Source: an uncultured Methylococcaceae bacterium (GTDB lineage: Bacteria > Pseudomonadota > Gammaproteobacteria > Methylococcales > Methylomonadaceae). Taken from it: 64,000 nt of DNA. Positions 2,842 through 64,000 of the stretch are shown piece after piece (position 1 is the stretch's first letter; each line of letters opens with the position of its first letter). The notes beneath the pieces are model-generated. The model was not told the DNA's origin, ran no database searches, and saw nothing but the letters and a program-made list of their open reading frames with translations. The stretch covers positions 164 to 64,163 of the forward strand of contig CAIMEB010000160.1 of the NCBI GenBank assembly GCA_903839855.1, in the 5' to 3' direction. A program made the translations under genes and the position numbers.

Positions 2842-4134
2842 ATGCAACAAACTCAGTGTCCAAAACGTTACTATCAACATCTTTATGCTCAAGTATTAAT
2901 AGCCATTCTATTGGGTGTTTTGTTGGGGCATTTTTATCCTGAAACAGCGATAACGATGAAACCGCTGGGTGATGGTTTTATTAAGCTGATTAAAATGATT
3001 ATTGCGCCTATTATTTTTTGTACCGTAGTAACTGGGATTGCAGGTATGCAGGATATGGATAAAGTAAGTCGAGTCGGTGTAAAGACACTGATCTATTTTG
3101 AAATCGTAAGTACACTGGCATTGATAATTGGATTGATCGTTGTGCATGTAATTCAGCCAGGTGCGGGTATGAATATCGATGTCACCTCATTAGATACTAA
3201 AGGATTGACATCATTTACTGAGGGCGCAAAAATTCAAAGTATTGTTGATTTCTTCCTTAACATTATTCCTCTTAGTGTGGTAGATGCTTTTGCTAAAGGG
3301 GATATACTACAAGTCTTGTTGTTTTCATTATTATTTGGCTTCTCCCTTGCGGCAATGAAGACAAATGGCAATGAGGTCGTGGCTTTTATCACTAAAATAT
3401 CTCATGCACTATTTGGTGTAGTAGAAACGATCATGAAACTCGCTCCTTTGGGTGCTTTTGGGGCTATGGCATTTACAGTAGGAAAATATGGTGTTTCGTC
3501 TTTAGCGCCGCTTGCTTCATTAATGGGCAGTTTTTATTTGGCGTGTTTGCTATTTATTTTTGTAGTATTGGGATTGATCGCAAAGCTGGTGGGATTTAGT
3601 TTAATCAAATTCATTATTTATATAAAAGATGAGTTACTGATTGTTTTAGGGACTTCATCATCAGAGTCTGTGCTACCCAGGATAATAACTAAATTAGAGT
3701 CGTTGGGTTGTTCTAAATCTGTTGTAGGCTTAGTGATTCCAACGGGCTATTCATTTAATCTGGATGGTACTTCAATTTATCTTCCAATGGCGGCAATATT
3801 CGTAGCGCAAGCTACTAATACATCACTTAATTTGACACAAGAATTAACAATCCTGGGTGTTTTGCTGTTAACCTCAAAAGGAGCAGCCGGTGTTACGGGA
3901 AGTGGGTTTATAACACTTGCCGCAACGCTTTCAGCGATTCCGACTATTCCAGTTGCAGGACTTGCCCTGATACTTGGGATTGATCGTTTTATGTCTGAAG
4001 CACGCGCCTTAACTAATCTTATTGGTAATGGTGTTGCCACAATGGTTGCCGCAAAATGGGAGAAAGAGTTAGATGAGGAAAAAATGCACGGGGAACTCAA
4101 CCGGATAAAAAAGGATAATATGGGTTTAAACTAG
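2842..4134 (+). CDS. dctA: C4-dicarboxylate:H+ symporter DctA (DAACS family)
   Basis: [75 protein letters not shown] motifs. Confidence 0.95.
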
Positions 4135-5118: not shown

Positions 5119-6519
5119 TTACTTAATATCAACTTTGGTTAGCTTTGTAATCGGTTTGTCGTTGTATTCACCGGTTAACGTCTTTAAAAACTCCACTAAG
5201 TTATTAGTTTCAACTTCAGTCAGGTTTTTGTTTCTTTGTACTTTAGCCATTATTTTAACTGCGTCTGCTAAATTGCTGATAGATCCATCATGAAAATAAG
5301 GCGAGGTAAACTCGATATTACGCAGTACGGGTACTTTAAAAAAATGACGATCTTTTTCATTTTTTGTAACGTTAAAACGACCTTGATCAGTTTCTGTTAA
5401 TTGATCACCTCTCAACATAAAGTAATTTTGTTTTACGCCCATTTTTTCAAATGATAAGCCACCTAATGCTGGGCCACTGTGACAAGAAGCACAATTAACT
5501 TTGAATAATTCATAGCCCGCTTTTTCATTACTGGTCAGGGCGTTGTTATTTCCACGCAAGTACTGGTCAAAAAGAGAGTTTGATGTCACCAACGATTGTT
5601 CAAATGTTGCAATAGCCTCTGTGACTGTTTCTTTACTTAAACCTTGTAGCGGATATAGGGAAGCAAAGGCATTTGTATAGTCAGGTACCCGCTTCAGTTT
5701 TTCAATTACAGTATCCCATTGAGCACCCATTTCACCCGGGTTGGCAACAGGGCCAGCGGCTTGTGCTTGTAAGTCTTTGGCTCGACCATCCCAAAATTGC
5801 GCTAGGTTATACATGGCATTATAGACCGTTGGAGAATTAATCGGTCCTTGTTGTCCGTTAATGCCAGTCGCCACTTTTGCTTGATCTGTACCGCCTTTAG
5901 TTAAGTCATGGCAGGATGCACAACTCAATGTATTGTCGCCAGAAAGTAAGGTGTCATGAAATAGATGCTGACCCAGTGCAACTTTTTGGGCATCAAGTTC
6001 TACTGTCAAAGGTAAAGGTTGTATAGGTTCACCTTTTAATGTACTGGTTGAATCATGGCTCCAGGCTAAATGACTACGCTCTTCTTTAATCCAGTCAAGA
6101 ATTGTTTGTTGTTCTTCTGTATCTAAACTATCGTTCCAATGCATAGAGAGATATAAAGCCGGAGGCATGCTATTGTTAAGGATAACACCTTCTATCCTGG
6201 CTAACTGGACAGGTGAAAACTTAACTTTGCCACTGTATAACTCGTTTGTAAGAATCAATCTATCTGAAGCATTTTCAATATCTTTTGCCATTAATCGCTT
6301 AGCAATAGGTAACTTTGCATAAATAGGCATTCGGGTCATGCCAGGAGAATGACAATCAACACATTTATTTTGAAAAATCTCAGTCACTTTTGTAAAATGC
6401 GGGGAGCTTCCCTCAATAACAGCAATGGGCTCATTTTCTCCAGATAGCCCTAATAAATTAGAAACCGGTAAAGCTAAAACAAGAGCAAACAAAGTCAATA
6501 CGACTAATTTAGTTTTCAT
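5119..6519 (-). CDS. ccp: Triheme cytochrome c peroxidase (YhjA-type: N-terminal anchor, extra heme domain, diheme CCP core)
   Basis: Three CxxCH motifs (CVDCH, CASCH, CASCH); NSPTVYNA, QFWDGRA, NPGEM and FKVPVLRNI..PYFHDG CCP motifs; hydrophobic N-terminus. Confidence 0.92.
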   Translation of the reverse strand: MKTKLVVLTLFALVLALPVSNLLGLSGENEPIAVIEGSSPHFTKVTEIFQNKCVDCHSPGMTRMPIYAKLPIAKRLMAKDIENASDRLILTNELYSGKVKFSPVQLARIEGVILNNSMPPALYLSMHWNDSLDTEEQQTILDWIKEERSHLAWSHDSTSTLKGEPIQPLPLTVELDAQKVALGQHLFHDTLLSGDNTLSCASCHDLTKGGTDQAKVATGINGQQGPINSPTVYNAMYNLAQFWDGRAKDLQAQAAGPVANPGEMGAQWDTVIEKLKRVPDYTNAFASLYPLQGLSKETVTEAIATFEQSLVTSNSLFDQYLRGNNNALTSNEKAGYELFKVNCASCHSGPALGGLSFEKMGVKQNYFMLRGDQLTETDQGRFNVTKNEKDRHFFKVPVLRNIEFTSPYFHDGSISNLADAVKIMAKVQRNKNLTEVETNNLVEFLKTLTGEYNDKPITKLTKVDIK

Positions 6520-6540: not shown

Positions 6541-9500
6541 TTAAAGCTCTGTTAATGCATAAACCTGAGTGGATTCATTGGGTTCATTAAATGAACACTC
6601 ACCCACTGAACAAAATCCCCATGAAGAATCAGCAGATAGCTGAATAGACTTGCTAACTGCCAGCGGTTTATGTAAATCTCTAGCAAGTGCGCCTAAGTTA
6701 ACAGCCTGATCAACGGTATGCCCTAAAACAGTGTAGTCCATTTTAATAGACGATCCGATATTACCTTCTATCATAGAATCTAGGGTTAAACCAAAACCAC
6801 ATCGAATAACGCTATAAATAGGGTTTTCTTCTGTTACTAGCTTAAATTTTTTGTACGCATCATTACAAGCTGCGATGGCTATATCCACTTGAGCAGGTAA
6901 AAAATGTGCAACTATACAACCCCCTGAATATTTAGCGACTTGCCCACCATGCTCTATAAATGATGCAGAACAAATCTCTAAAAAGTTATTCAAGGCCTTA
7001 ACAACGTCTTCTAAGGCAAAATCTTTAGATAAGCCTGAAAAATCTGTCATGCTCCCAGAAACGACAATTCTTTCTGTTTTTTTTATGGGAATGGTTAACG
7101 GGTTAATGCCTTCCATTAAATATTTAAGTAATACCGGTTGGGTATAACGCCCCACCATACTATAAGAGTGGGCAATGTTCTGTAACATCATACCAATTGC
7201 CAGCAACATGAGGTCATTGCTTTCGCTCAAGGCGACTGTTTTCATCCCCCATTCAGTAAAAAGGCGTTCTTCACAGCCAGTCTCTGCACTGAGTATCGTT
7301 ATTTCGTGATGTCTTGGATCTCGGCTGATTTTTTCTACCAACTCATCAACGATCGATTCTTCGCCTTCCAAAACTTGGAAGAAATAATCACGAACTGAAA
7401 TAAGTACACCTGTAACGTCCCTGTGTTTATTATTTATACTCGATATTCGTCCAATTTCAAGTATTTCTTCCTCATTAAGCACTGCATTTAATTTGCTTAC
7501 ATAGGTCAACCGCTTCATGCCTAGGGAGAATGTAGTGGCTGTTTCCGTCGCACGATAATTTGATAAATTACGTACTGCTTTACTCATTAACCAACCGCTT
7601 TTGATTAATGCTTTAAGATCCTCTTGTGAAACAATCTTAAGTTCACAATCAGTTAGGCAGCGTACTGTTTCAATACGCCGATTATTGTGTAACGGGAGAA
7701 TTTCTCCAAAATAATCACCTGGACCTAATTCTCGAATTATACGTCCTTCTTGCATGACCTTTAAACGGCCTGAGTCAACGGCATAGGCCATTTCTGCTGC
7801 ATCACCAGAACAAAATACATTATCCCCCGTCTTATAATGTGAGCGTTGTAAATGGGCTGAGGGTGCTTGTGATAAGACTGCAATATCGTTGCGAAACGCG
7901 AGCACTAAAAACCAATCTATAATAATTCGGAGATTTCTTTCTAAACCAGGTACCGAAAATAGATTAATCAAGCGGGATACAAACCAGGCTGGTTTACCAC
8001 CTATAATAACAGCTCCGAAAGCGCATAAAGAGTATTCAGCCATGTTATACGGTTGAATAAAATGAGTTCGTGTCTTAATAGGTCGTGTCTTATAACCTTG
8101 AGATGTGGCCCACGCATTAAAACCAGCCGTATACCCCAACGTGACTAGATCATCAGTAAAAGAAAATGATGGCTGGTTATTAGGTTCTTTTGATTCAGTT
8201 ATCCAAATATTTTCAAATCCCAGTAACCGTAATTCGTCATTAATTGCATATGGCCAGCTTAACTCACCGTAATATTTAAACTTAATATTAGGTAATTTTA
8301 AGGAAGCATTGATGACTAATCCAACTGATTGATTTTCACCATTGGCAAAAAATAAATCTCTTTGGGTAATGCCTGTTATTTCATCATTCAAATGTTCAAT
8401 GACGCCTGCTTTTTTCAAATTACGTGCACGACGCTGCTTGATTTTGTTTTCAAACGCTGACCAACATTGATCTTGCTCTTCAAAAAGATGAACTTGCCAA
8501 CCCACGCTTCGTAATACTGAATAAGAGGATTCTGCAGCGCGTAATATTTGACTTACTTCAACGGCTATTGTAGATGCGCACTCTCCAAAACCAATAATAG
8601 CAAAAGACAGGAGGCGAACTTGCTCGGCGGGATCATTAGCAAACTCAGCTTCTTCTACTAAGTCTAAAACACGCTGTCTAATACGTAAGGCATCGGCAAC
8701 AGAATCAACTAAACACGCATGTGCAAGCATTCCCGGAATGCTTGCAAAATTGGCTTTAGGACTCAGCGCCAGAATTAAACTATCATAAGGTAATTCAACA
8801 CTATCGTTATTCTTCCGCTTTGCAATGACTTTTTTAGCTCTTTCATCAACAGAATCTAAATGCCCCACCACTACATTCGTTTGTTGGATAATACGTCGAA
8901 AGGGATTGACCACATTACCGGGTTGGACTGTTCCTCCGATGACTTCTGGCAAAAAAGGTGCAAACAAAAAATTAGCCTGTTCATGCAACAACGTAATTTT
9001 AACGTTGGAATACTGCCCGATGAGATGTTCAATTTTAATGGCAGCTTGTAAAGCGGAAAGACCTCCGCCGACAATAACAATATGGGCTGATTTATCCCTG
9101 GCAATGGGCCGTTTAAGCTCACCTGCAGAGTTGATCAGGCAAGATAATACAACACCATAAAAAAGAATATGTTCTGTCGGTGTTTCTGGCAATAACAAAG
9201 CAAAGATAGAAAATGCAGAAATTAAAAACAACGATAAGGGACGTAATAAAACCCCAGCAATCATTAGAATACCGGCACTCACTTCAACTAATGCCATTAC
9301 TAAAGTGAAGGCTTCTGGATTAACCGATAAAACAGGCAAATGGTATTGCGTAATAATCCCAATCGAAAGATTAGGTTGCATGACTTTAAAAAAGACCCCT
9401 AAATACAATAAGGTGGTGCCTGTTAAAATACGCATAATCGCTTGAGCACGCAGCCGAGGTTGTTCTGCGAGCCAGGCTTGTAAGGGCTGGAACATGGCGG

Positions 9501-10161
9501 GGGTTGGTAAGGGTAAATAATGTCTACCGGGACCCTGTAGAACCAAATAAATACTCGCACCAATAATTGCACCAGCATAGGCAAATATGGCCTCACCATA
9601 TAGGTAAGCCCCCAAAAAACTTAAACAAATCAGTAAAAAAGAAAAGAAACGAACATAGATGCCAAATAATATGGTCAATCCCAACACGACTTCAGCCCAG
9701 CGTAACCAAGCCCAAGTGATGCCCAATTGAGTTAGATCAAGATCTGGAGCAAAGAAGGTGGGCTGAGTAAAGGGAGCAATTCCAAAACGTGGCTCGGCTC
9801 CTAAGGCGGATGATAATAAAATCCAACCGACACAAACACGCAAAATACGAGGTACATGATCGCCATAAGAAGATAAGCGTGCCTGTAAATCGGGAAATAA
9901 TTCTCTTGCACCGGTAAATCCTAACCACACCCAGCCGACGATAAATGTTACAAATACAGAAATCATTGCCATATTCAGTGGCGACCATTTTGCGAAGAGT
10001 TCGGGGTGCGGTAAAGAATTCCAATACGTAATCTGTACGGGTGTCAAAATCCAGCGCTCGTGAGCAACAGTTGACTCGGAAAATAATAGCAGTCCAGCGA
10101 CATTCAATATTAAAGCTAGAGTACCTAAAAAGCGACGAGATTTTAAAGTTAGGATCATCAT
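6541..10161 (-). CDS. 1206-aa multidomain membrane protein: signal peptide + DoxX-like membrane region (aa ~1-350), NDH-2-like flavoprotein fold (~359-760), cNMP-binding domain (~770-860), BLUF (882-976), degenerate class III nucleotidyl cyclase (~1028-1206)
   Basis: AHERW after a signal peptide and two DoxX-like repeats; IVIVGGG, LPEVIGG, YDSLILAL and RNLRIIIDW of NDH-2; GDYFGE..RRIETV of cNMP domains; MKRLTYVS..NN..TGVL..FFQVLEG..DPRH..WGM of BLUF; EGINPL..IEGNIGSSIKMDYTVLG resembling Beggiatoa bPAC. Confidence 0.88.
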   Translation of the reverse strand: MMILTLKSRRFLGTLALILNVAGLLLFSESTVAHERWILTPVQITYWNSLPHPELFAKWSPLNMAMISVFVTFIVGWVWLGFTGARELFPDLQARLSSYGDHVPRILRVCVGWILLSSALGAEPRFGIAPFTQPTFFAPDLDLTQLGITWAWLRWAEVVLGLTILFGIYVRFFSFLLICLSFLGAYLYGEAIFAYAGAIIGASIYLVLQGPGRHYLPLPTPAMFQPLQAWLAEQPRLRAQAIMRILTGTTLLYLGVFFKVMQPNLSIGIITQYHLPVLSVNPEAFTLVMALVEVSAGILMIAGVLLRPLSLFLISAFSIFALLLPETPTEHILFYGVVLSCLINSAGELKRPIARDKSAHIVIVGGGLSALQAAIKIEHLIGQYSNVKITLLHEQANFLFAPFLPEVIGGTVQPGNVVNPFRRIIQQTNVVVGHLDSVDERAKKVIAKRKNNDSVELPYDSLILALSPKANFASIPGMLAHACLVDSVADALRIRQRVLDLVEEAEFANDPAEQVRLLSFAIIGFGECASTIAVEVSQILRAAESSYSVLRSVGWQVHLFEEQDQCWSAFENKIKQRRARNLKKAGVIEHLNDEITGITQRDLFFANGENQSVGLVINASLKLPNIKFKYYGELSWPYAINDELRLLGFENIWITESKEPNNQPSFSFTDDLVTLGYTAGFNAWATSQGYKTRPIKTRTHFIQPYNMAEYSLCAFGAVIIGGKPAWFVSRLINLFSVPGLERNLRIIIDWFLVLAFRNDIAVLSQAPSAHLQRSHYKTGDNVFCSGDAAEMAYAVDSGRLKVMQEGRIIRELGPGDYFGEILPLHNNRRIETVRCLTDCELKIVSQEDLKALIKSGWLMSKAVRNLSNYRATETATTFSLGMKRLTYVSKLNAVLNEEEILEIGRISSINNKHRDVTGVLISVRDYFFQVLEGEESIVDELVEKISRDPRHHEITILSAETGCEERLFTEWGMKTVALSESNDLMLLAIGMMLQNIAHSYSMVGRYTQPVLLKYLMEGINPLTIPIKKTERIVVSGSMTDFSGLSKDFALEDVVKALNNFLEICSASFIEHGGQVAKYSGGCIVAHFLPAQVDIAIAACNDAYKKFKLVTEENPIYSVIRCGFGLTLDSMIEGNIGSSIKMDYTVLGHTVDQAVNLGALARDLHKPLAVSKSIQLSADSSWGFCSVGECSFNEPNESTQVYALTEL

Positions 10162-52752: not shown

Positions 52753-54168
52753 CTATTTAAGGAGCGTAGCAGCATCATGAACTGACTCAGATAACGTTGG
52801 TCGCGCATGAATAGTTCTTGCCAGATCTTCGCTACTTGCAGAAAACTCCATGGCCAATACGGCTTCTGCTATAAGTTCTGATGCTTGAGTAGCGATAATA
52901 TGAACACCTAAAATCTTATCAGTTTCTGCATGAGCAATTATTTTAACCATACCTTCTGCTTTATCCAGTGCTAAAGCCCGAACCGTTGAGTCCAATGGAA
53001 AAATCCCAACTTTTATAGGTTCACCTGCAGCACGTAAAGCCTGTTCAGTCTGACCAACCCAAGCTATCTCTGGTTCAGTATAAATAACACTGGGCATGTT
53101 ATTGTAATTAATCTGATTATTTATTCCAGCGATACTCTCCGCAACAAACACGCCCTCCTCTATTCCCTTATGAGCTAACATGGGACCCAGTAAGGTTAAG
53201 TCACCCACTGCATAAACCCCAGGTAGATTCGTTCGACAATTATCATCTACGTAAACATAACCATTATCATCTAATAATAAATCAGCTTCAGGGGCAGCCA
53301 GTTCTGTCGTATTAGGTTTTCGCCCACAGGCCACTATAAGTTTATCAATTCGCAGAGTATGTGTACCCTCTTGGTCTTGATATTCAAGAGTAACTTTTTT
53401 GTTACCTTTCTTTGCTGAAATTACCCGTGCTCCTAAGCGTAAATCAAAACCTTGCCCCTGATATATGCGATAGGCTTCACCGGAAATTTGTTGATCTAAT
53501 ACAGACAAAAAGTTTTCTTGTGCTTCCAATAATATAGTTTCTGAACCTAATCTATTCCAAATACTTGCTAACTCAATACCCACGACCCCTGCACCAATAA
53601 TAGCCAGTTTTTTAGGAACAACTTCTAAATTTAAAGCTGTTTTAGCGTCAATGATAAACTCATTATCTAACGTTAAACAAGGCAACTTAATAGGTTTTGA
53701 GCCAGAAGCCAAAATAACATGAGTGGCACTAATGATGGATTTTACCAGATTATCTTCTGTCGCTATCTCGACTTGACGGTCGCTCAAAAGACGGGCTTTT
53801 GCTAAAATGTGATCTACCTTATGATGCGTAAACAGCCCAAGCATTTTATGACTAATTTCTTCGATGATTTTATCTTTTCGTCGAATCATCTTAGGCATAT
53901 CAATTGAAATAGTAGCGACATTTATACCATGCTTCGGCGCTTCATGAGTCAATTGATAATATATTTTAGCGGAATTTAACAAAGTCATAGAGGCGACACC
54001 GCCCGTATTTAAATGAGAACCCCCTAAGCGCCCCTGGTTATTTTTATCGCGCTTATTATCAATACACGCAGTTTTTAATCCCAGTTGGGCACAACGAATT
54101 GCACTGGCAAAGCCTGCCGGCCCTGCACCAATTACAATGACATCATAATGCGTTTGCTTTTTTAGCAT
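52753..54168 (-). CDS. Dihydrolipoamide-dehydrogenase (E3) homolog lacking the redox disulfide and catalytic His
   Basis: Full-length Lpd fold (GAGPAG, IGAGVVG, GD..MLAHK, EPEIAWVG, GVHII) directly after sucB. LGGTCLNVGCIPSK reads LGGSHLNTGGVASM and HxHPTxxE reads HARPTLSE; I confirmed both from the codons. Confidence 0.9.
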   Translation of the reverse strand: MLKKQTHYDVIVIGAGPAGFASAIRCAQLGLKTACIDNKRDKNNQGRLGGSHLNTGGVASMTLLNSAKIYYQLTHEAPKHGINVATISIDMPKMIRRKDKIIEEISHKMLGLFTHHKVDHILAKARLLSDRQVEIATEDNLVKSIISATHVILASGSKPIKLPCLTLDNEFIIDAKTALNLEVVPKKLAIIGAGVVGIELASIWNRLGSETILLEAQENFLSVLDQQISGEAYRIYQGQGFDLRLGARVISAKKGNKKVTLEYQDQEGTHTLRIDKLIVACGRKPNTTELAAPEADLLLDDNGYVYVDDNCRTNLPGVYAVGDLTLLGPMLAHKGIEEGVFVAESIAGINNQINYNNMPSVIYTEPEIAWVGQTEQALRAAGEPIKVGIFPLDSTVRALALDKAEGMVKIIAHAETDKILGVHIIATQASELIAEAVLAMEFSASSEDLARTIHARPTLSESVHDAATLLK

Positions 54169-54172
54169 AATA

Positions 54173-55432
54173 TTAAATATTAAGTAAAAGATGGGCGGGA
54201 GCTTCCAAGCATTCTTTAATAGTGACTAAAAATTGTACAGCTTCACGACCATCAACCAAGCGATGATCGTAAGATAAAGCCAGATACATGATCGGTCTGA
54301 TAACAATCAGACCATTTTCAACCACGGGACGTTCTTTAATTGCATGCATACCTAAAATGGCACACTGGGGTGGATTAAGTATTGGCGTTGATAGCATTGA
54401 ACCAAAAACACCGCCGTTGGTAATCGTAAATGTTCCGCCTTTTAAGTCATCATAGCTTAAAGTACCTGCCCTCGCCTTTTCTCCAAACGAGGCAATACTT
54501 TTTTCAATACCTGCAAAATCAAGTTGATCTGCATCATGCAATACCGGCACAATTAGTCCTCTTGGCGTACTGACAGCAATACCTAAATCATAATAGCCAT
54601 GATAAATGATGTCACTGCCATCAATAGAGGCATTGATCGCTGGGAAGTGTTTTAAGGCTTCAATTGAGGCCTTAACAAAAAATGACATAAAGCCAAGCTT
54701 AACAGAATGTTTTTGTTCAAACCGGGTTTTATATTGATTACGAAGATCAATAACGTTTTGCATATTGACTTCATTAAAAGTGGTTAACATCGCCGCATTT
54801 TGTTGGGCTTGTAACAAACGTTCAGCGACTTTTGCTCTTAATCGGGTCATTGCAACACGTTGCTCAGGTCTTAACCCTGCAACGGTGCTCGTGGTATCGA
54901 TTGTCGTTTCTGTGACTGTTTTTTGGGGTGATACCGTTTTTTCTGGATCGGCAATCACTTTTTTAGTTGGCGTTTCAATCGCTGCAACAGTAGGCATTAT
55001 TGGCTTATTAAGATGTTCTAAAACATCCGCTTTAGTTAACCGACCGCTCTTACCAGTACCGCTGATCTGCGAAGGATCCAAGGCATTTTCATTAATCAAT
55101 CGACGTACAGAAGGGCTTAGGGGGATGTCTTGATCATTATTTGTAATGCTCAGTGAGGCTGACTTACTTTCATTTGATGCTGTGGATTTAATATTATCCA
55201 CTTCGACATTGGCTAACAACTCACCACTCGTAACAATAGCCCCACTTTCTTTAAAAATTTTACTAAGAATGCCCGACTCAGGTGCAGTTACTTCAAGTAC
55301 AACTTTATCTGTTTCAAGATCAACAAGGTTTTCGTTTTTATTAACGAAATCCCCTGCATTTTTGTGCCAACTAATTAAGGTGGCGTCAGAAACTGATTCG
55401 GGTAGGTTGGGAACTAAGACTTCAATGCTCAT
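54173..55432 (-). CDS. sucB: 2-oxoglutarate dehydrogenase E2 (dihydrolipoamide succinyltransferase); start 55432
   Basis: LPESVSDA, lipoyl [11 protein letters not shown]3-binding domain ([19 protein letters not shown]), [10 protein letters not shown]. Confidence 0.97.
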
Positions 55433-55433
55433 G

Positions 55434-58262
55434 TTATTTTCCTGAAGGATTGCCATATAAAGCTGCGTGTACTACAGCTTTTTGTTGTTCTATATGCACG
55501 TGAAACTTGCCAACAGCTGGCGCTGCAGAAGCATCACGCCCTGCATAAGTAACACTAATATTTGCGGATACATTATCTGTAAAATGGTGTTTAGTTTGGT
55601 ACCAGGCACCCTGGTTTTTAGGTTCCTCCTGACACCAGAAAAACTCTTTTAAATTTGGATATTTTGCCAGCTCCGTTTTGAGTAAGGTTTCTGGAAACGG
55701 ATAAATCTGTTCTAGACGCGCGATAGCAATATGCTCAAGCTTATCCTGGTTTCGCGCTTCCAATAAATCGTAATAAACCTTACCCGCACATAAAACAAAC
55801 CGCGTTACTTTTTTTGGATTCAGCGGATCTTGCTCTCCAATAACCGATTGAAAATGGCCTGCCGTAAGATCCTCAAGAGTTGAAACCGCTAACTTATGTC
55901 GAAGCAGGCTTTTGGGACTCATGACAATCAGTGGCTTACGATAAGGACGTACTATTTGACGACGTAATAAATGGAATATTTGTGCTGGTGTCGTAGGGTT
56001 ACAAACCTGAATATTATGCTCTGCACACAGTTGCAAATAACGCTCTAATCTTGCTGATGAATGTTCTGGCCCCTGCCCTTCAAAACCATGAGGTAATAAC
56101 ATAACCAGTCCACATAATCGTCCCCATTTTGTTTCACCTGAGCTAATAAACTGATCAATCACCACCTGAGCACCATTAGCAAAGTCGCCAAACTGCGCCT
56201 CCCAAATAACCAGTGTATTCGGTGTCGTTGTACTGTAACCATATTCAAAGCCCAACACCCCTGACTCCGATAAAAGAGAGTCGAAGATTTGAGCACTAGC
56301 TTGCTCTTTATCCAAGTGCTTAATAGGTGTGTAGGTTTTATTATTGATTTGATTATGTAACACGGCATGACGATGCACAAACGTGCCCCGTCCTACATCT
56401 TGCCCTGTCAAACGAATCGGATGTCCTTCTAAAAGAAGACTCGCATAAGCCAGATTTTCAGCAAATCCCCAATCCAGAGGTAATGCACCTGCCGCCATTT
56501 TTCGGCGGTTTTCCATCACCTTAGCGACTCTGGGATGCAACTCAAAGCCAGTGGGTAGTCTCTGCATTCTGTCATTACAAAAGCGTAAATAGTCCAAAGA
56601 AATAGCTGTCTTGCAAGGCGTATCCCAATGCTTATTGAGAAACTTATTCCATTGATTAGTATACGAATAGCCCGGATTTTTTAATACAGGTCTTGAAACA
56701 ACCTGACCTGCTTCAAGTAGTTTTTGATAGTCCTGTTCCATCTCAACAGACTGCCTGGAGTCAAGAATTCCTTCGCTGATTAATTTCTGGGCATACAGTT
56801 TTCGTGTTGTTTTGTGCTTGCGGATTTTCTTATACATAACGGGTTGAGTCGTCGCCGGCTCATCCGCTTCATTATGTCCAAGACGACGATAGCAAATTAG
56901 ATCAATAACCACATCTTTATTAAAAGTCATTCTATAATCAAGCGCTAAGCGAGTGACAAAAATAACAGCTTCTGGATCATCACCGTTAACATGGAAAACA
57001 GGCGCCTGAATCATACTGGCAACATCTGTACAATAAAAAGTAGACCTAGCATCTAAGGGATTACTCGTCGTAAAGCCAATTTGATTATTAATGACGATAT
57101 GTACAGTCCCACCGGTATAAAACGCTCGAGTCTGAGACATATTCAACGACTCCATCACAATCCCCTGCCCTGCAAACGCCGCGTCGCCATGAATCAAAAC
57201 AGGCACGACCGTACTCACTCCATCATCTCCTGCTCTATCTTGTCGTGCTTTAACTGAGCCCTCAACCACAGGATTAATAATCTCCAGGTGGGATGGATTA
57301 AAGGCAAGTGTTAAATGCACAGGACCACCGGGTGTTGCTACATCCGATGAGAACCCCATGTGATATTTTACATCGCCTGAACGAGCGCCGGGTAACAAGG
57401 TTGAGGTTCCAGCAAACTCATCAAACAGAGTAGCCGGGCTTTTACCCAAGATATTGACCAGAACATTTAAACGACCGCGATGTGCCATGCCGATAACGAT
57501 CTCTTTTACGCCCTTTTGACCAGAAACCTGGATGAGTTCATCGAGAATAGGAATCAGTGATTCCCCACCTTCAAGTGAGAAGCGTTTTTGACCGACAAAA
57601 CGGTGATGTAAATAGCTTTCAATCCCTTCAGCCGAAGTTAATAACTTGAGCAACCAATGTTTTTTCTCTGCATCCAGATTTAATTTGGCTTGAGTAGTTT
57701 CAAGTCGATTAATCAACCAGCGTCTAATTTTAGTATCCGCAATATGCATATACTCGGAGCCTATGCTACCGCAATAAATCGCTTTTAAATTAGCTATGAT
57801 ATTACGCAAGGGTGAGCGGTCTACTCCCCCATAAAGAGCGCCTGTGTCAAAAAGGGTATCCATATCAAGTTCAGAAAGCCCATAGTAGGAAGGATCCATA
57901 TCGGCTTGTGGCTGTACACTGGTACCCAGTGGATTATTATTAGCAATTTGATGACCTCGAACCCGATAATGATTAATTAATCGAGAAACAGCCGCTTGTT
58001 TTTTGACACTTTCTTCAGTAAACCCCTGTAACTGGGCTAATCTTCCTGGCGATTTAATGGCAAGTTGTGCAAACCGTTGAACAATCGGCCCGTGAGGTGT
58101 TTCGTAAAAAGCATTTTGTTGAATTTCTCTGAATTTTTTTTGCCAACTTAATTCAACTGACTCTGGATCTTCCAAAAACCGCTCATATAAATCCTCAATA
58201 AAACTGGCATTACTGCCCTGTAATGATGAAGAATCTTGAAAAAGTTGAATCAGGTTACTCAT
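55434..58262 (-). CDS. sucA: 2-oxoglutarate dehydrogenase E1
   Basis: [36 protein letters not shown] ThDP motif, [24 protein letters not shown]. Confidence 0.98.
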
Positions 58263-62768: not shown

Positions 62769-64000
62769 GAAAGCCTCGAATACTCCAGACAAGCATAACC
62801 CTACTGCCCTAAGCAGTATAATAAAATCAATAAGTTACTGGTCAGGCTAAGGCAGGTTTTGTTACGGGGAACTTGCCGATTTTTTTAAGAGCCTTGATCC
62901 AGCGTGGCGCATTTTTTTGGGCGGACATGGCCTCGTAATCGACCCCGGGATCACAATAGGGCTCATGCCGCGATAGCATAAAATAAATGATACGAATCAA
63001 TTTATGAGCAATGGCAACAATGGCTTTTTTATGACTCTTGCGAGCCATAAGGCTTCGGTATTTCGCAGCCAAAGAACTTTTGGTGTTACGTGCTGCATTG
63101 GCACATTCACATAAAATATAACGGACAATCGCATTGCCCTTGCGTGTCTTGCCCGATTTTCGCTTGCCGGCCGACTCATTGTTGCCTGGACACAAGGCCG
63201 CCCAAGAAGCGAGTCGATCAGCATCGCCAAACTGTGACATGTCGTCACCAATCTCTATCAGGATCATGGCGCTAGCGATGGCATCAATACCGGGTATCGT
63301 TTGCAACAAATTAAACGCCCATTGGTAGGGTTGCATGGCTTCAATCAAATAAGCATCGATTTTGGCTCGCTTTTGTTCAAGCTGTATGACGTGTTCGTGT
63401 AGTTCGGCGAGAATGAACAGGTGGCGTGACGACAGATCACCGTCCAACGACGCGGCCAGATCATCGCGCTTGCTTTTAAGACTACCGCGAGCCATATCAA
63501 GCAGGTCATCAATCGTCTTGCCCGCAATCAGCCCCGCTACCATCTCTCGGGCTGATACGCCCTTGATGTCAGACACCACCGCACCCAGCTTGATACCGGC
63601 ATCGTCTAGTGTCTTATGTAGCCGATTGCTTTCGCTGGCCAACATGGCTGAGAGTTTGCGGCGATAACGCGAAACCAGTCGCAACTCGCGCAAATCTTTA
63701 GGCGGTATGAAACTGCCACGTACCAGCCCAAAGCGTGCCAGTACGGCCAGCCATTCCGAATCGCACATGTCGGTCTTGCGCCCCGGCACATGCTTAATGA
63801 AATGGGCATTGACGACCATGGCAAAAATGCCAGCCCGCTCAAGGTGGGAATAGGCGCTTTTCCAATAAATACCTGTGCTTTCCATGACCACCCGTTCCAC
63901 TTCAAGCTCAAGTAACCAAAGCACCATTGCCTTCATGTCGCGTTTAAAGCCACCAAATGATTGCTGGTGCTTGGTTAGGGCGCCATCTTCGTTTTCAACA
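62769..64000 (-). mobile_element. IS110-family insertion sequence (left end lies beyond the window)
   Basis: Transposase ORF plus a ~70-bp right end with no terminal inverted repeat; visibly more GC-rich than the host; right boundary is approximate. Confidence 0.85.
62842..64000 (-). CDS. IS110 recombinase/transposase (5' end truncated by the window; frame open from 64000)
   Basis: VVMESTGIYW (E), RKTDMCDSEW (DxxD) of the RuvC-like DEDD motif; TIPGID..IGDDMSQF; NESAGK catalytic-Ser region; AIVAIAHKL. Confidence 0.93.
   Translation of the reverse strand, partial: VENEDGALTKHQQSFGGFKRDMKAMVLWLLELEVERVVMESTGIYWKSAYSHLERAGIFAMVVNAHFIKHVPGRKTDMCDSEWLAVLARFGLVRGSFIPPKDLRELRLVSRYRRKLSAMLASESNRLHKTLDDAGIKLGAVVSDIKGVSAREMVAGLIAGKTIDDLLDMARGSLKSKRDDLAASLDGDLSSRHLFILAELHEHVIQLEQKRAKIDAYLIEAMQPYQWAFNLLQTIPGIDAIASAMILIEIGDDMSQFGDADRLASWAALCPGNNESAGKRKSGKTRKGNAIVRYILCECANAARNTKSSLAAKYRSLMARKSHKKAIVAIAHKLIRIIYFMLSRHEPYCDPGVDYEAMSAQKNAPRWIKALKKIGKFPVTKPALA

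Follow-up and report, generated by a model that had tools for sequence, protein, structure and literature searches.

In the dihydrolipoyl dehydrogenase (E3) of the 2-oxoacid dehydrogenase complexes, dihydrolipoamide first reduces a Cys-Cys disulfide, aided by a His-Glu dyad that the partner subunit contributes. From the proximal thiolate the electrons pass to flavin adenine dinucleotide (FAD) and from there, on the opposite face, to nicotinamide adenine dinucleotide (NAD+). Mycobacterium tuberculosis LpdA (Rv3303c), an NAD(P)H:quinone reductase, has lost part of the disulfide and His-Glu machinery and works with the flavin and the pyridine-nucleotide site only, and SthA (UdhA), of the same superfamily, has abandoned the redox disulfide while keeping its flavin and NAD(P) sites together with the first Cys and the Lys. 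Hopkins and Williams are said to have found in 1995 that the C44S and C49S forms of E. coli Lpd lose lipoamide activity and keep NADH-dependent transhydrogenase or diaphorase activity. LpdA, SthA and these mutants are precedents for diaphorase or transhydrogenase activity. Conceptually, the closest case of a pseudoenzyme within a 2-oxoacid dehydrogenase complex is PDHX, the E3-binding protein of the eukaryotic pyruvate dehydrogenase (PDH), a catalytically dead subunit paralogue that is kept for binding. Here we describe a 64,000-nucleotide stretch of contig CAIMEB010000160.1 (the window), from an uncultured lake Methylococcaceae population, in which the genes for the E1 and E2 components of 2-oxoglutarate dehydrogenase (ODH), sucA and sucB, are followed by an E3-like gene, lpd, whose product has lost both redox cysteines and the catalytic histidine; we refer to this product as the pseudo-E3.

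The window protein most resembles the LpdG-type E3 enzymes (P. aeruginosa 5U8U/5U8V, P. fluorescens 1LPF and A. vinelandii 3LAD; 45-46% identity), with which it shares the gene position after sucB, the FAD and NAD motifs, the interface domain and the aligned E2-contact residues. A residue-level alignment to Pseudomonas LpdG (1lpf/5u8u; 454 bits, 46% identity) places LGGSHLNTGGVASM against LGGTCLNVGCIPSK; the disulfide loop reads GGSHLNTGGVASM in the window protein and GGTCLNVGCIPSK in LpdG. The first redox cysteine (Cys1) is replaced by H52, the second (Cys2) by G57, the loop proline by A59 and the flavin-side Lys of the IPSK motif by M61. The sequence-only reading had reported the loss of both redox cysteines and of the catalytic His from two runs of codons; these are present on the minus strand, GGT TCT CAT TTA AAT ACG GGC GGT GTC GCC TCT ATG at 54021..53986 and CAT GCG CGA CCA at 52809..52798, and the alignment confirms the loss at H52, G57 and R456.

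Three features that define a lipoamide dehydrogenase are therefore missing from the protein although its profile score passes for one. Both cysteines of the redox-active CxxxxC motif occur in 206/206 sequences of our canonical Lpd comparison set and in neither position here; the IPSK Lys (human K54) is present in 100% of the canonical sequences, against M, I or L in the family described below; and the His-Glu dyad (HxHPTxSE) is broken by R456, with E461 still in place. The first half-reaction of E3 thus appears to be gone, which leaves the flavin/NAD(H) half-reaction as the most that could survive.

Further changes accompany these losses. A canonical Gly-Gly pair is replaced by H107-K108, which in an alignment made by hand correspond to human G101-G102; human G101 is described as situated in the lipoamide channel (PMC9698468). 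The family has K, Q or N in the Gly108 column. The 206 canonical Lpds share 70 sites with at least 90% conservation. In the family, 53 of these keep the same residue at that level or above, and those whose majority residue has changed include 52, 58, 59, 61, Gly108 (to K/Q/N) and Gly123 (to A). Tyr20, which is Tyr in 99% of canonical Lpds, is Y or F in the family, and the C-terminal tail is variable or shortened. Set beside LpdG, then, the pseudo-E3 has none of CxxxxC, the catalytic His or the flavin-side Lys; a Lys stands at a near-invariant Gly, a Thr is inserted behind the GD motif, and the C-terminal tail is shorter.

The protein passes the profile TIGR01350 (dihydrolipoyl dehydrogenase, EC 1.8.1.4) with 446.3 bits against a cut-off of 408.8, as LpdG-type enzymes do, and because this cut-off is passed the family members are labelled 'dihydrolipoyl dehydrogenase' by annotation pipelines. 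It falls short of NF005883, the profile of the LpdA-type NAD(P)H-quinone dehydrogenases (231.6 bits, cut-off 479), and of NF003585, that of SthA, the Si-specific NAD(P)+ transhydrogenase (300.1 bits, cut-off 465). Like LpdA it is an Lpd homologue with partly lost disulfide and His-Glu machinery; LpdA, however, is not known to belong to a sucAB operon and has lost different residues. SthA (9N4Y) likewise differs in having no known link to an E2. The E. coli C44S and C49S proteins share with the pseudo-E3 an E3 fold with FAD and no disulfide, but they are laboratory mutants with a single change, whereas in the window protein evolution has rebuilt the si-face site as a whole and fixed it. PDHX, for its part, is derived from E2 and recruits an active E3 instead of replacing one. 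In its presumed working the pseudo-E3 comes nearest to a pseudoenzyme subunit such as PDHX, and in its chemistry to the Cys-less Lpd mutants or to LpdA and SthA. We found no prior description of a catalytically disabled, sucAB-linked E3 in the literature on pseudoenzymes, lipoamide dehydrogenase, Methylobacter or methanotrophs.

The loss of catalytic residues is not a local decay of one gene; it is conserved throughout a group of methane-oxidising bacteria. Cys1 is missing in all of the 120 best homologues. Proteins of metagenome-assembled genomes (MAGs) come closest, at 89% identity, and identity is 79% for Methylobacter sp. S3L5C and M. psychrophilus. Pooling the homologue and representative searches gave a family of 234 distinct sequences that are at least 60% identical to the query (60-100%), with named members in Methylobacter, Methylovulum, Methylomicrobium lacus, Methylomicrobium sp. 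Wu6 and a Crenothrix MAG; neither Methylotuvimicrobium (alcaliphilum/buryatense) nor Methylomonas is among the named matches. The sequence-only reading had set against itself the case of relaxed selection with intact orthologues in close relatives. We looked for such orthologues, and both Cys1 and the Lys are absent in 234/234 sequences; canonical sequences (C, C, P, K, H, E) are all at most 55% identical to the query. The whole family forms one 50%-identity cluster in a representative library of 1.84 billion proteins, in which the next matches stand at 47% identity. The canonical C/C/K/H/E set occurs in 136 of the best 150 representatives of 50%-identity clusters, so the combination seen in the window lies far outside chance variation.

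The gene is kept by purifying selection. Ten full loci with checked frames gave, for pairs with unsaturated synonymous divergence (dS) by the Nei-Gojobori method, ratios of nonsynonymous to synonymous divergence (dN/dS) of 0.055-0.075 for lpd, 0.054-0.086 for sucB and 0.022-0.038 for sucA; lpd reaches 0.11-0.13 in less reliable pairs with dS above 1.4. In dN, lpd exceeds sucB by a median factor of 1.26 and sucA by one of 1.76. The family also lies about 23% farther from an outgroup than the canonical LpdG-type sequences do (1.13 vs 0.92), and the ranges do not overlap, which indicates faster change on the lineage of the family. Over the 234 sequences 116/471 sites are at least 99% conserved, no frameshift or stop interrupts the window open reading frame (ORF) or any of the ten loci, and the length is nearly uniform (5th-95th percentile 475-492 amino acids (aa)). 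The low dN/dS and the clade-wide trait agree with the earlier expectation that the gene is maintained and not decaying. Absent catalytic residues, purifying selection and wide conservation come together in this protein, as they do in pseudoenzymes.

Outside the active site the protein retains the fold and the cofactor motifs of an E3. The Rossmann motifs for FAD (G14/G16/G19) and NAD (G192/G194/G197) are both present, in agreement with the sequence-only reading, and D37, G322-D323 and PMLAHK are about 100% conserved in the family. E215 aligns with E208 of human E3, which is listed as binding the NAD ribose (PMC9698468). An AlphaFold (AF2) model built from a 65-sequence alignment has a predicted local distance difference test score (pLDDT) of 93.5 and superimposes on P. 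aeruginosa LpdG with a template-modelling (TM) score of 0.96-0.97 and a root-mean-square deviation of about 1.1 A; a model from a shallow, family-only alignment reached a pLDDT of 71.7 and was set aside. The protein is thus predicted to be a complete E3 fold without an E3 active site.

On the protein surface, D417, E441, F442, E447 and D448 align with D413, E437, Y438, E443 and D444 of human E3, which touch the E3-binding domains of E3BP/E2b (PMC9698468). All five are invariant throughout the family of 234, in a domain with only 29.5% invariant sites overall, and unlike them the catalytic Glu461 is conserved in 80% of the family. On the other side of the putative contact, the E3-binding domain of SucB is nearly unchanged over 13 loci, with hypervariable linkers flanking it.

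The three genes lie on one strand in the order sucA-sucB-lpd, with an intact E3-binding domain in SucB, as expected of an operon for the ODH complex (Table 1). The ORF had been described as full length, which it is, at 471 aa; it is uninterrupted on the minus strand, and the plus-strand frame of the same coordinates is riddled with stops. The start 4 nt after sucB was correctly given (TAA, TATT, ATG), M. tundripaludum has the same 4-nt spacing, and we looked for a terminator-like site between the two genes and found none. The catalytic and lipoyl motifs of SucA and SucB are intact, as had been claimed: SucA retains GDAAFAGQG...NNQ and matches its profile over the full length, and SucB has the lipoyl Lys (ETDKV), the E3-binding domain and the catalytic DHRLVDG. 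As listed, sucB begins at an upstream ATG, so that it and the end of sucA overlap (55433-55456, minus); relatives point to the Met of MSIEVLVP at 55432, 1 base past the sucA stop (55434-55436), as the likely true start. Gene order is retained in 9/9 full genome loci and in M. tundripaludum. Scans for promoters and terminators around the operon gave nothing above shuffled sequence, searches there for Rfam families gave no match, and the window gene was found in none of the RNA runs searched. Contigs from 4 independent lake-water metagenome runs show zero differences over the pseudo-E3 gene, and an assembly error as the cause of the lost residues is ruled out by this concordance.

Table 1. Features of the sucA-sucB-lpd locus and of its surroundings in the window.
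Feature	Position (nt)	Strand	Remarks
Pseudo-E3 (Lpd-like) ORF	52753..54168	minus	471 aa, stop included; ORF list, TIGR01350 446 bits, Pfam Pyr_redox_2 and Pyr_redox_dim
Degenerate disulfide loop GGSHLNTGGVASM, residues 49-61	53986..54024	minus	alignment to 1lpf/5u8u, codons read directly
HARPTLSE (LpdG: FSHPTLSE), residues 454-461	52786..52809	minus	R456 for catalytic His; partner Glu E461 retained
H107-K108 for canonical Gly-Gly	53845..53850	minus	K108 column 97% Gly in canonical Lpd
Thr325, one-residue insertion after the FAD 'GD' motif	53194..53196	minus	92% T in the family; absent in 206/206 canonical sequences
FAD-binding GxGxxG (G14, G16, G19)	54112..54129	minus	100% conserved in 234 family members
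NAD(H)-binding GxGxxG (G192, G194, G197) and E199	53572..53595	minus	100% conserved in 234 members
E215	53524-53526	minus	95% E, 5% D in the family; aligns with human E208
Surface patch D417, E441, F442, E447, D448	52825..52920	minus	aligns with human E3 D413, E437, Y438, E443, D444
Spacer TATT, 4 nt	54169..54172	minus	between sucB stop (TAA, 54175-54173) and lpd ATG
sucB (E2o)	54173..55456	minus	NF004309 572 bits; Pfam Biotin_lipoyl, E3_binding, 2-oxoacid_dh
SucB lipoyl Lys51	55304-55306	minus	
SucB E3-binding domain	about 55019-55123 (about residues 112-146 of the 427-aa ORF)	minus	
sucA (E1o), 942 aa	55434..58262	minus	NF006914 1346 bits over residues 6-935
33-nt stretch TATATTAACTTCGTATAATGTATATTATGTTAA	52673-52705	plus	in the 216-nt spacer downstream of the pseudo-E3 gene; single-copy in the window
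DctA-type C4-dicarboxylate transporter	2842-4134	plus	683 bits
MbnH/MauG-like di-haem enzyme	5119-6519	minus	adjoins the 1206-aa ORF
1206-aa ORF	6541-10161	minus	no NCBIfam match
IS110-family transposase	62842-63936	minus	251 bits; near the window end

The sequence-only reading had called the substitutions coordinated, and this did not hold up. Written as a string of the residues at positions 52/57/59/61/456/461, the window type HGAMRE is found in 87 sequences, YCAIHK (M. tundripaludum) in 43 and YCAMHE (Methylomicrobium lacus and sp. Wu6) in 32; YCSIHE is the state of M. luteus and M. marinus, HCAIHE that of Methylovulum and HCAMRE that of two intermediates. Neighbour-joining bootstrap values are 100% for this core family and 97.5% for an Arg456 subclade within it. 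A larger clade, at 94%, adds a form with the state FCPLYK and a trio that contains a Methylothermaceae B42 protein (SCPKYD, SCPKFD, CCPKFE); this node is possibly inflated by long-branch attraction. From the distribution of states and the tree, loss in the core family appears to have been stepwise, with Cys1, Lys and Pro going first, then His giving way to Arg, and then Cys2. In the sister lineages the His was probably lost first, and Cys1 in part independently. Once Cys2 has gone, position 57 drifts among G, S, E, D, P and V, which is what disuse of thiol chemistry would lead one to expect. The other replacements are limited: position 52 is only H, Y or F, position 61 only M, I or L, and the derived subclade has fixed Arg456.

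Two contigs show the outlying forms in their surroundings. The Methylothermaceae B42 type, on a contig of a hydrothermal-vent metagenome (L015:6618-8416), is a degenerate Lpd with Ser for Cys1, Tyr for His and Asp for Glu. The FCPLYK form, with Phe for Cys1, Leu for Lys, Tyr for His and Lys for Glu, stands on a Logan contig (L016:4425-7116) in the order DUF2914-sucB-lpd, next to an intact sucB.

We propose that the gene descends directly from a sucAB-linked, LpdG-type lipoamide dehydrogenase whose product would have lost dihydrolipoamide oxidation, having no disulfide, flavin-side Lys or His and a bulky residue at a near-invariant Gly. The E3 dimer would still form and bind FAD and NAD(H), would dock on the E3-binding domain of SucB, as the conservation of the two surfaces suggests, and would be retained in the ODH complex as a subunit without catalysis, in a structural and/or NADH-responsive role. 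Reoxidation of the SucB lipoyl arm and all E3 activity of PDH would then be supplied by a second, canonical Lpd encoded elsewhere, and a true E3 for PDH must presumably exist in these genomes; indirect hints of one are the NAD+-linked PDH activity of M. alcaliphilum extracts and the placement of the E3 gene of Methylomonas DH-1, both described below. Among the explanations considered, a non-catalytic E3 on SucB best fits the invariant cofactor sites and contact patch, the conserved SucB domain, the operon linkage and the low dN/dS, and we hold with moderate confidence that the protein is a pseudo-E3 unable to oxidise dihydrolipoamide and still able to bind FAD and NAD(H) and to dock on SucB. 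The roles put forward in the sequence-only reading, a dominant-negative or NADH-sensing cap or else a diaphorase, with the true E3 borrowed from the PDH locus, are hypothetical.

Several observations weigh against this proposal. The residues aligned with the E2 contacts also lie near the dimer interface. A pure scaffold needs no intact NAD(H) site, which implies some nucleotide-dependent role. The canonical Lpd of the same genomes is presumed, tblastn having returned only the known copy in the window and in every retrieved locus. The degenerate Lpd of the vent contig stands away from sucAB; it adjoins a cupredoxin gene (128 aa, with a signal peptide), whose end it overlaps at its start (ATGA). 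The 14-kb locus with the FCPLYK form has no sucA, so that the function of the protein may be independent of a full ODH complex. In the gene table of Methylomonas DH-1, sucA (RS11995) and sucB (RS12000) are far from the E3 gene RS00645 (PMC6373157 supplement), and the M. capsulatus genome paper names only E1 and E2 homologues; these lists suggest that some relatives can do without an E3-like gene beside sucAB. Finally, 13C work cited in PMC6373157 describes an operating oxidative tricarboxylic acid (TCA) cycle in M. buryatense, which makes it unlikely that ODH is wholly blocked in all type I methanotrophs.

The strongest competitor of the proposed SucB-bound subunit, and one we regard as possible though rather unlikely, is a neofunctionalised flavoenzyme that acts freely, for which the position after sucAB would be historical. 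NADH would reduce the flavin at the intact re-face site and electrons would pass to an acceptor other than a lipoyl group, for instance O2, a quinone, another pyridine nucleotide or an acceptor of the dye type; in a variant of the same idea, a newly built si-face site (Tyr/His52, His/Arg456', Glu461') would serve a small anionic substrate. Fully conserved NAD(H) and FAD motifs are not required of a mere scaffold, the replacement residues at 52, 61 and Arg456 are constrained, the family has its own conserved sites and the Thr325 insertion by the flavin-binding GD motif, and the Methylothermaceae-like relative is unlinked to sucAB. Yet the operon linkage with its 4-nt junction persists through the core family, the residues aligned with E2/E3BP contacts are invariant, the scores lie below the cut-offs of the two disulfide-less families profiled above, and there is no conserved candidate for a partner gene downstream, where the window has tsaC and M. 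tundripaludum a RimK-like gene.

A working E3 with unconventional chemistry, in which the dihydrolipoyl thiol attacks flavin C4a through the space left by Gly57, or basal members form a mixed disulfide with the remaining Cys, is very improbable. It would account for the strong purifying selection on sucA and sucB, whose lipoyl arm needs reoxidation, and could draw on the Cys2 and His-Glu pair of basal members and on the oxidative TCA flux reported in some type I methanotrophs (PMC6373157). The window protein, however, has neither Cys and no catalytic base, the Cys2 position drifts freely, no member has the Lys that all canonical Lpds share, and K, Q or N replaces a near-invariant Gly. Single-Cys mutants of E. 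coli Lpd, moreover, are reported to be essentially inactive with lipoamide. NAD+-linked ODH activity was undetected in a related methanotroph (PMC5802761). Still less credible, to the point of being negligible, is simple decay toward a pseudogene after ODH lost importance. The greater divergence of the family from the outgroup, the higher dN of lpd relative to sucB and sucA, the variable or truncated C-terminal tail and the loss of different catalytic residues in different lineages are what such decay might leave; the frames are nevertheless open and nearly uniform in length, the cofactor motifs are intact, and decay is excluded by a dN/dS on par with that of sucB and by the many conserved sites.

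Some neighbouring features were noted in passing. The 33-nt stretch downstream of the pseudo-E3 gene is the only part common to short contigs from 4 lake metagenomes, whose flanks are unrelated on both sides, so that it occurs in several genomic contexts; 18 nt of it, TAACTTCGTATAATGTAT, match what we take to be one loxP arm and most of the loxP spacer. The DctA-type transporter is unexpected in a presumed obligate methanotroph and could be relevant to TCA-cycle intermediates. A di-haem enzyme gene, the 1206-aa ORF beside it and a transposase gene are given in Table 1. On another Logan contig (L017:5491-8207) a canonical Lpd with an N-terminal lipoyl domain directly follows AhpD-like (CMD) and OsmC genes, with a TetR regulator nearby, in what looks like a lipoyl-dependent peroxidase system and not a dehydrogenase complex. 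This lipoyl-domain-fused Lpd (P0127) was considered as the canonical Lpd of the family's genomes and set aside as irrelevant, given its place beside OsmC/AhpD-like genes.

The pseudo-E3 bears on an old puzzle of methanotroph metabolism. For gammaproteobacterial methanotrophs that carry ODH genes, the activity was reported as never demonstrated (for example PMC5023229) or as 'N.D.' (for example PMC5802761; see also PMC517821), and the premise from which the sequence-only reading set out, absent activity despite the genes, is sound in these sources. Extracts of M. alcaliphilum, a related type I methanotroph, gave NAD+-linked PDH values of 120-290 and 'N.D.' for ODH (PMC5802761). A clade-wide pseudo-E3 may help to explain the undetected ODH activity of these methanotrophs, with the caveat that the strains of the biochemical studies are not placed among the named members that carry the degenerate form. 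A bolder version, which we consider unlikely, is that the dead E3 fills the E3-binding sites of SucB and so causes the absence of NAD+-linked ODH activity despite sucAB expression in type I methanotrophs of this group, as a genetically fixed, possibly NADH-responsive brake on the oxidative TCA cycle. If such a brake were real, the repeated independent losses of residues in the core family, the Methylothermaceae-like group and the sucB-linked FCPLYK form would amount to selection for keeping the protein with its chemistry off.

The protein would be a clear natural pseudoenzyme on the E3 side of a 2-oxoacid dehydrogenase complex, and metabolic models based on annotation may assume an activity that the pseudo-E3 presumably cannot have. 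It raises the questions of whether the dead E3 sits in the complex, whether a second Lpd competes with it, and how it affects TCA flux in organisms used for methane bioconversion. A selected, catalytically disabled E3 gives the decades-old puzzle of ODH in these bacteria a concrete and testable molecular handle.

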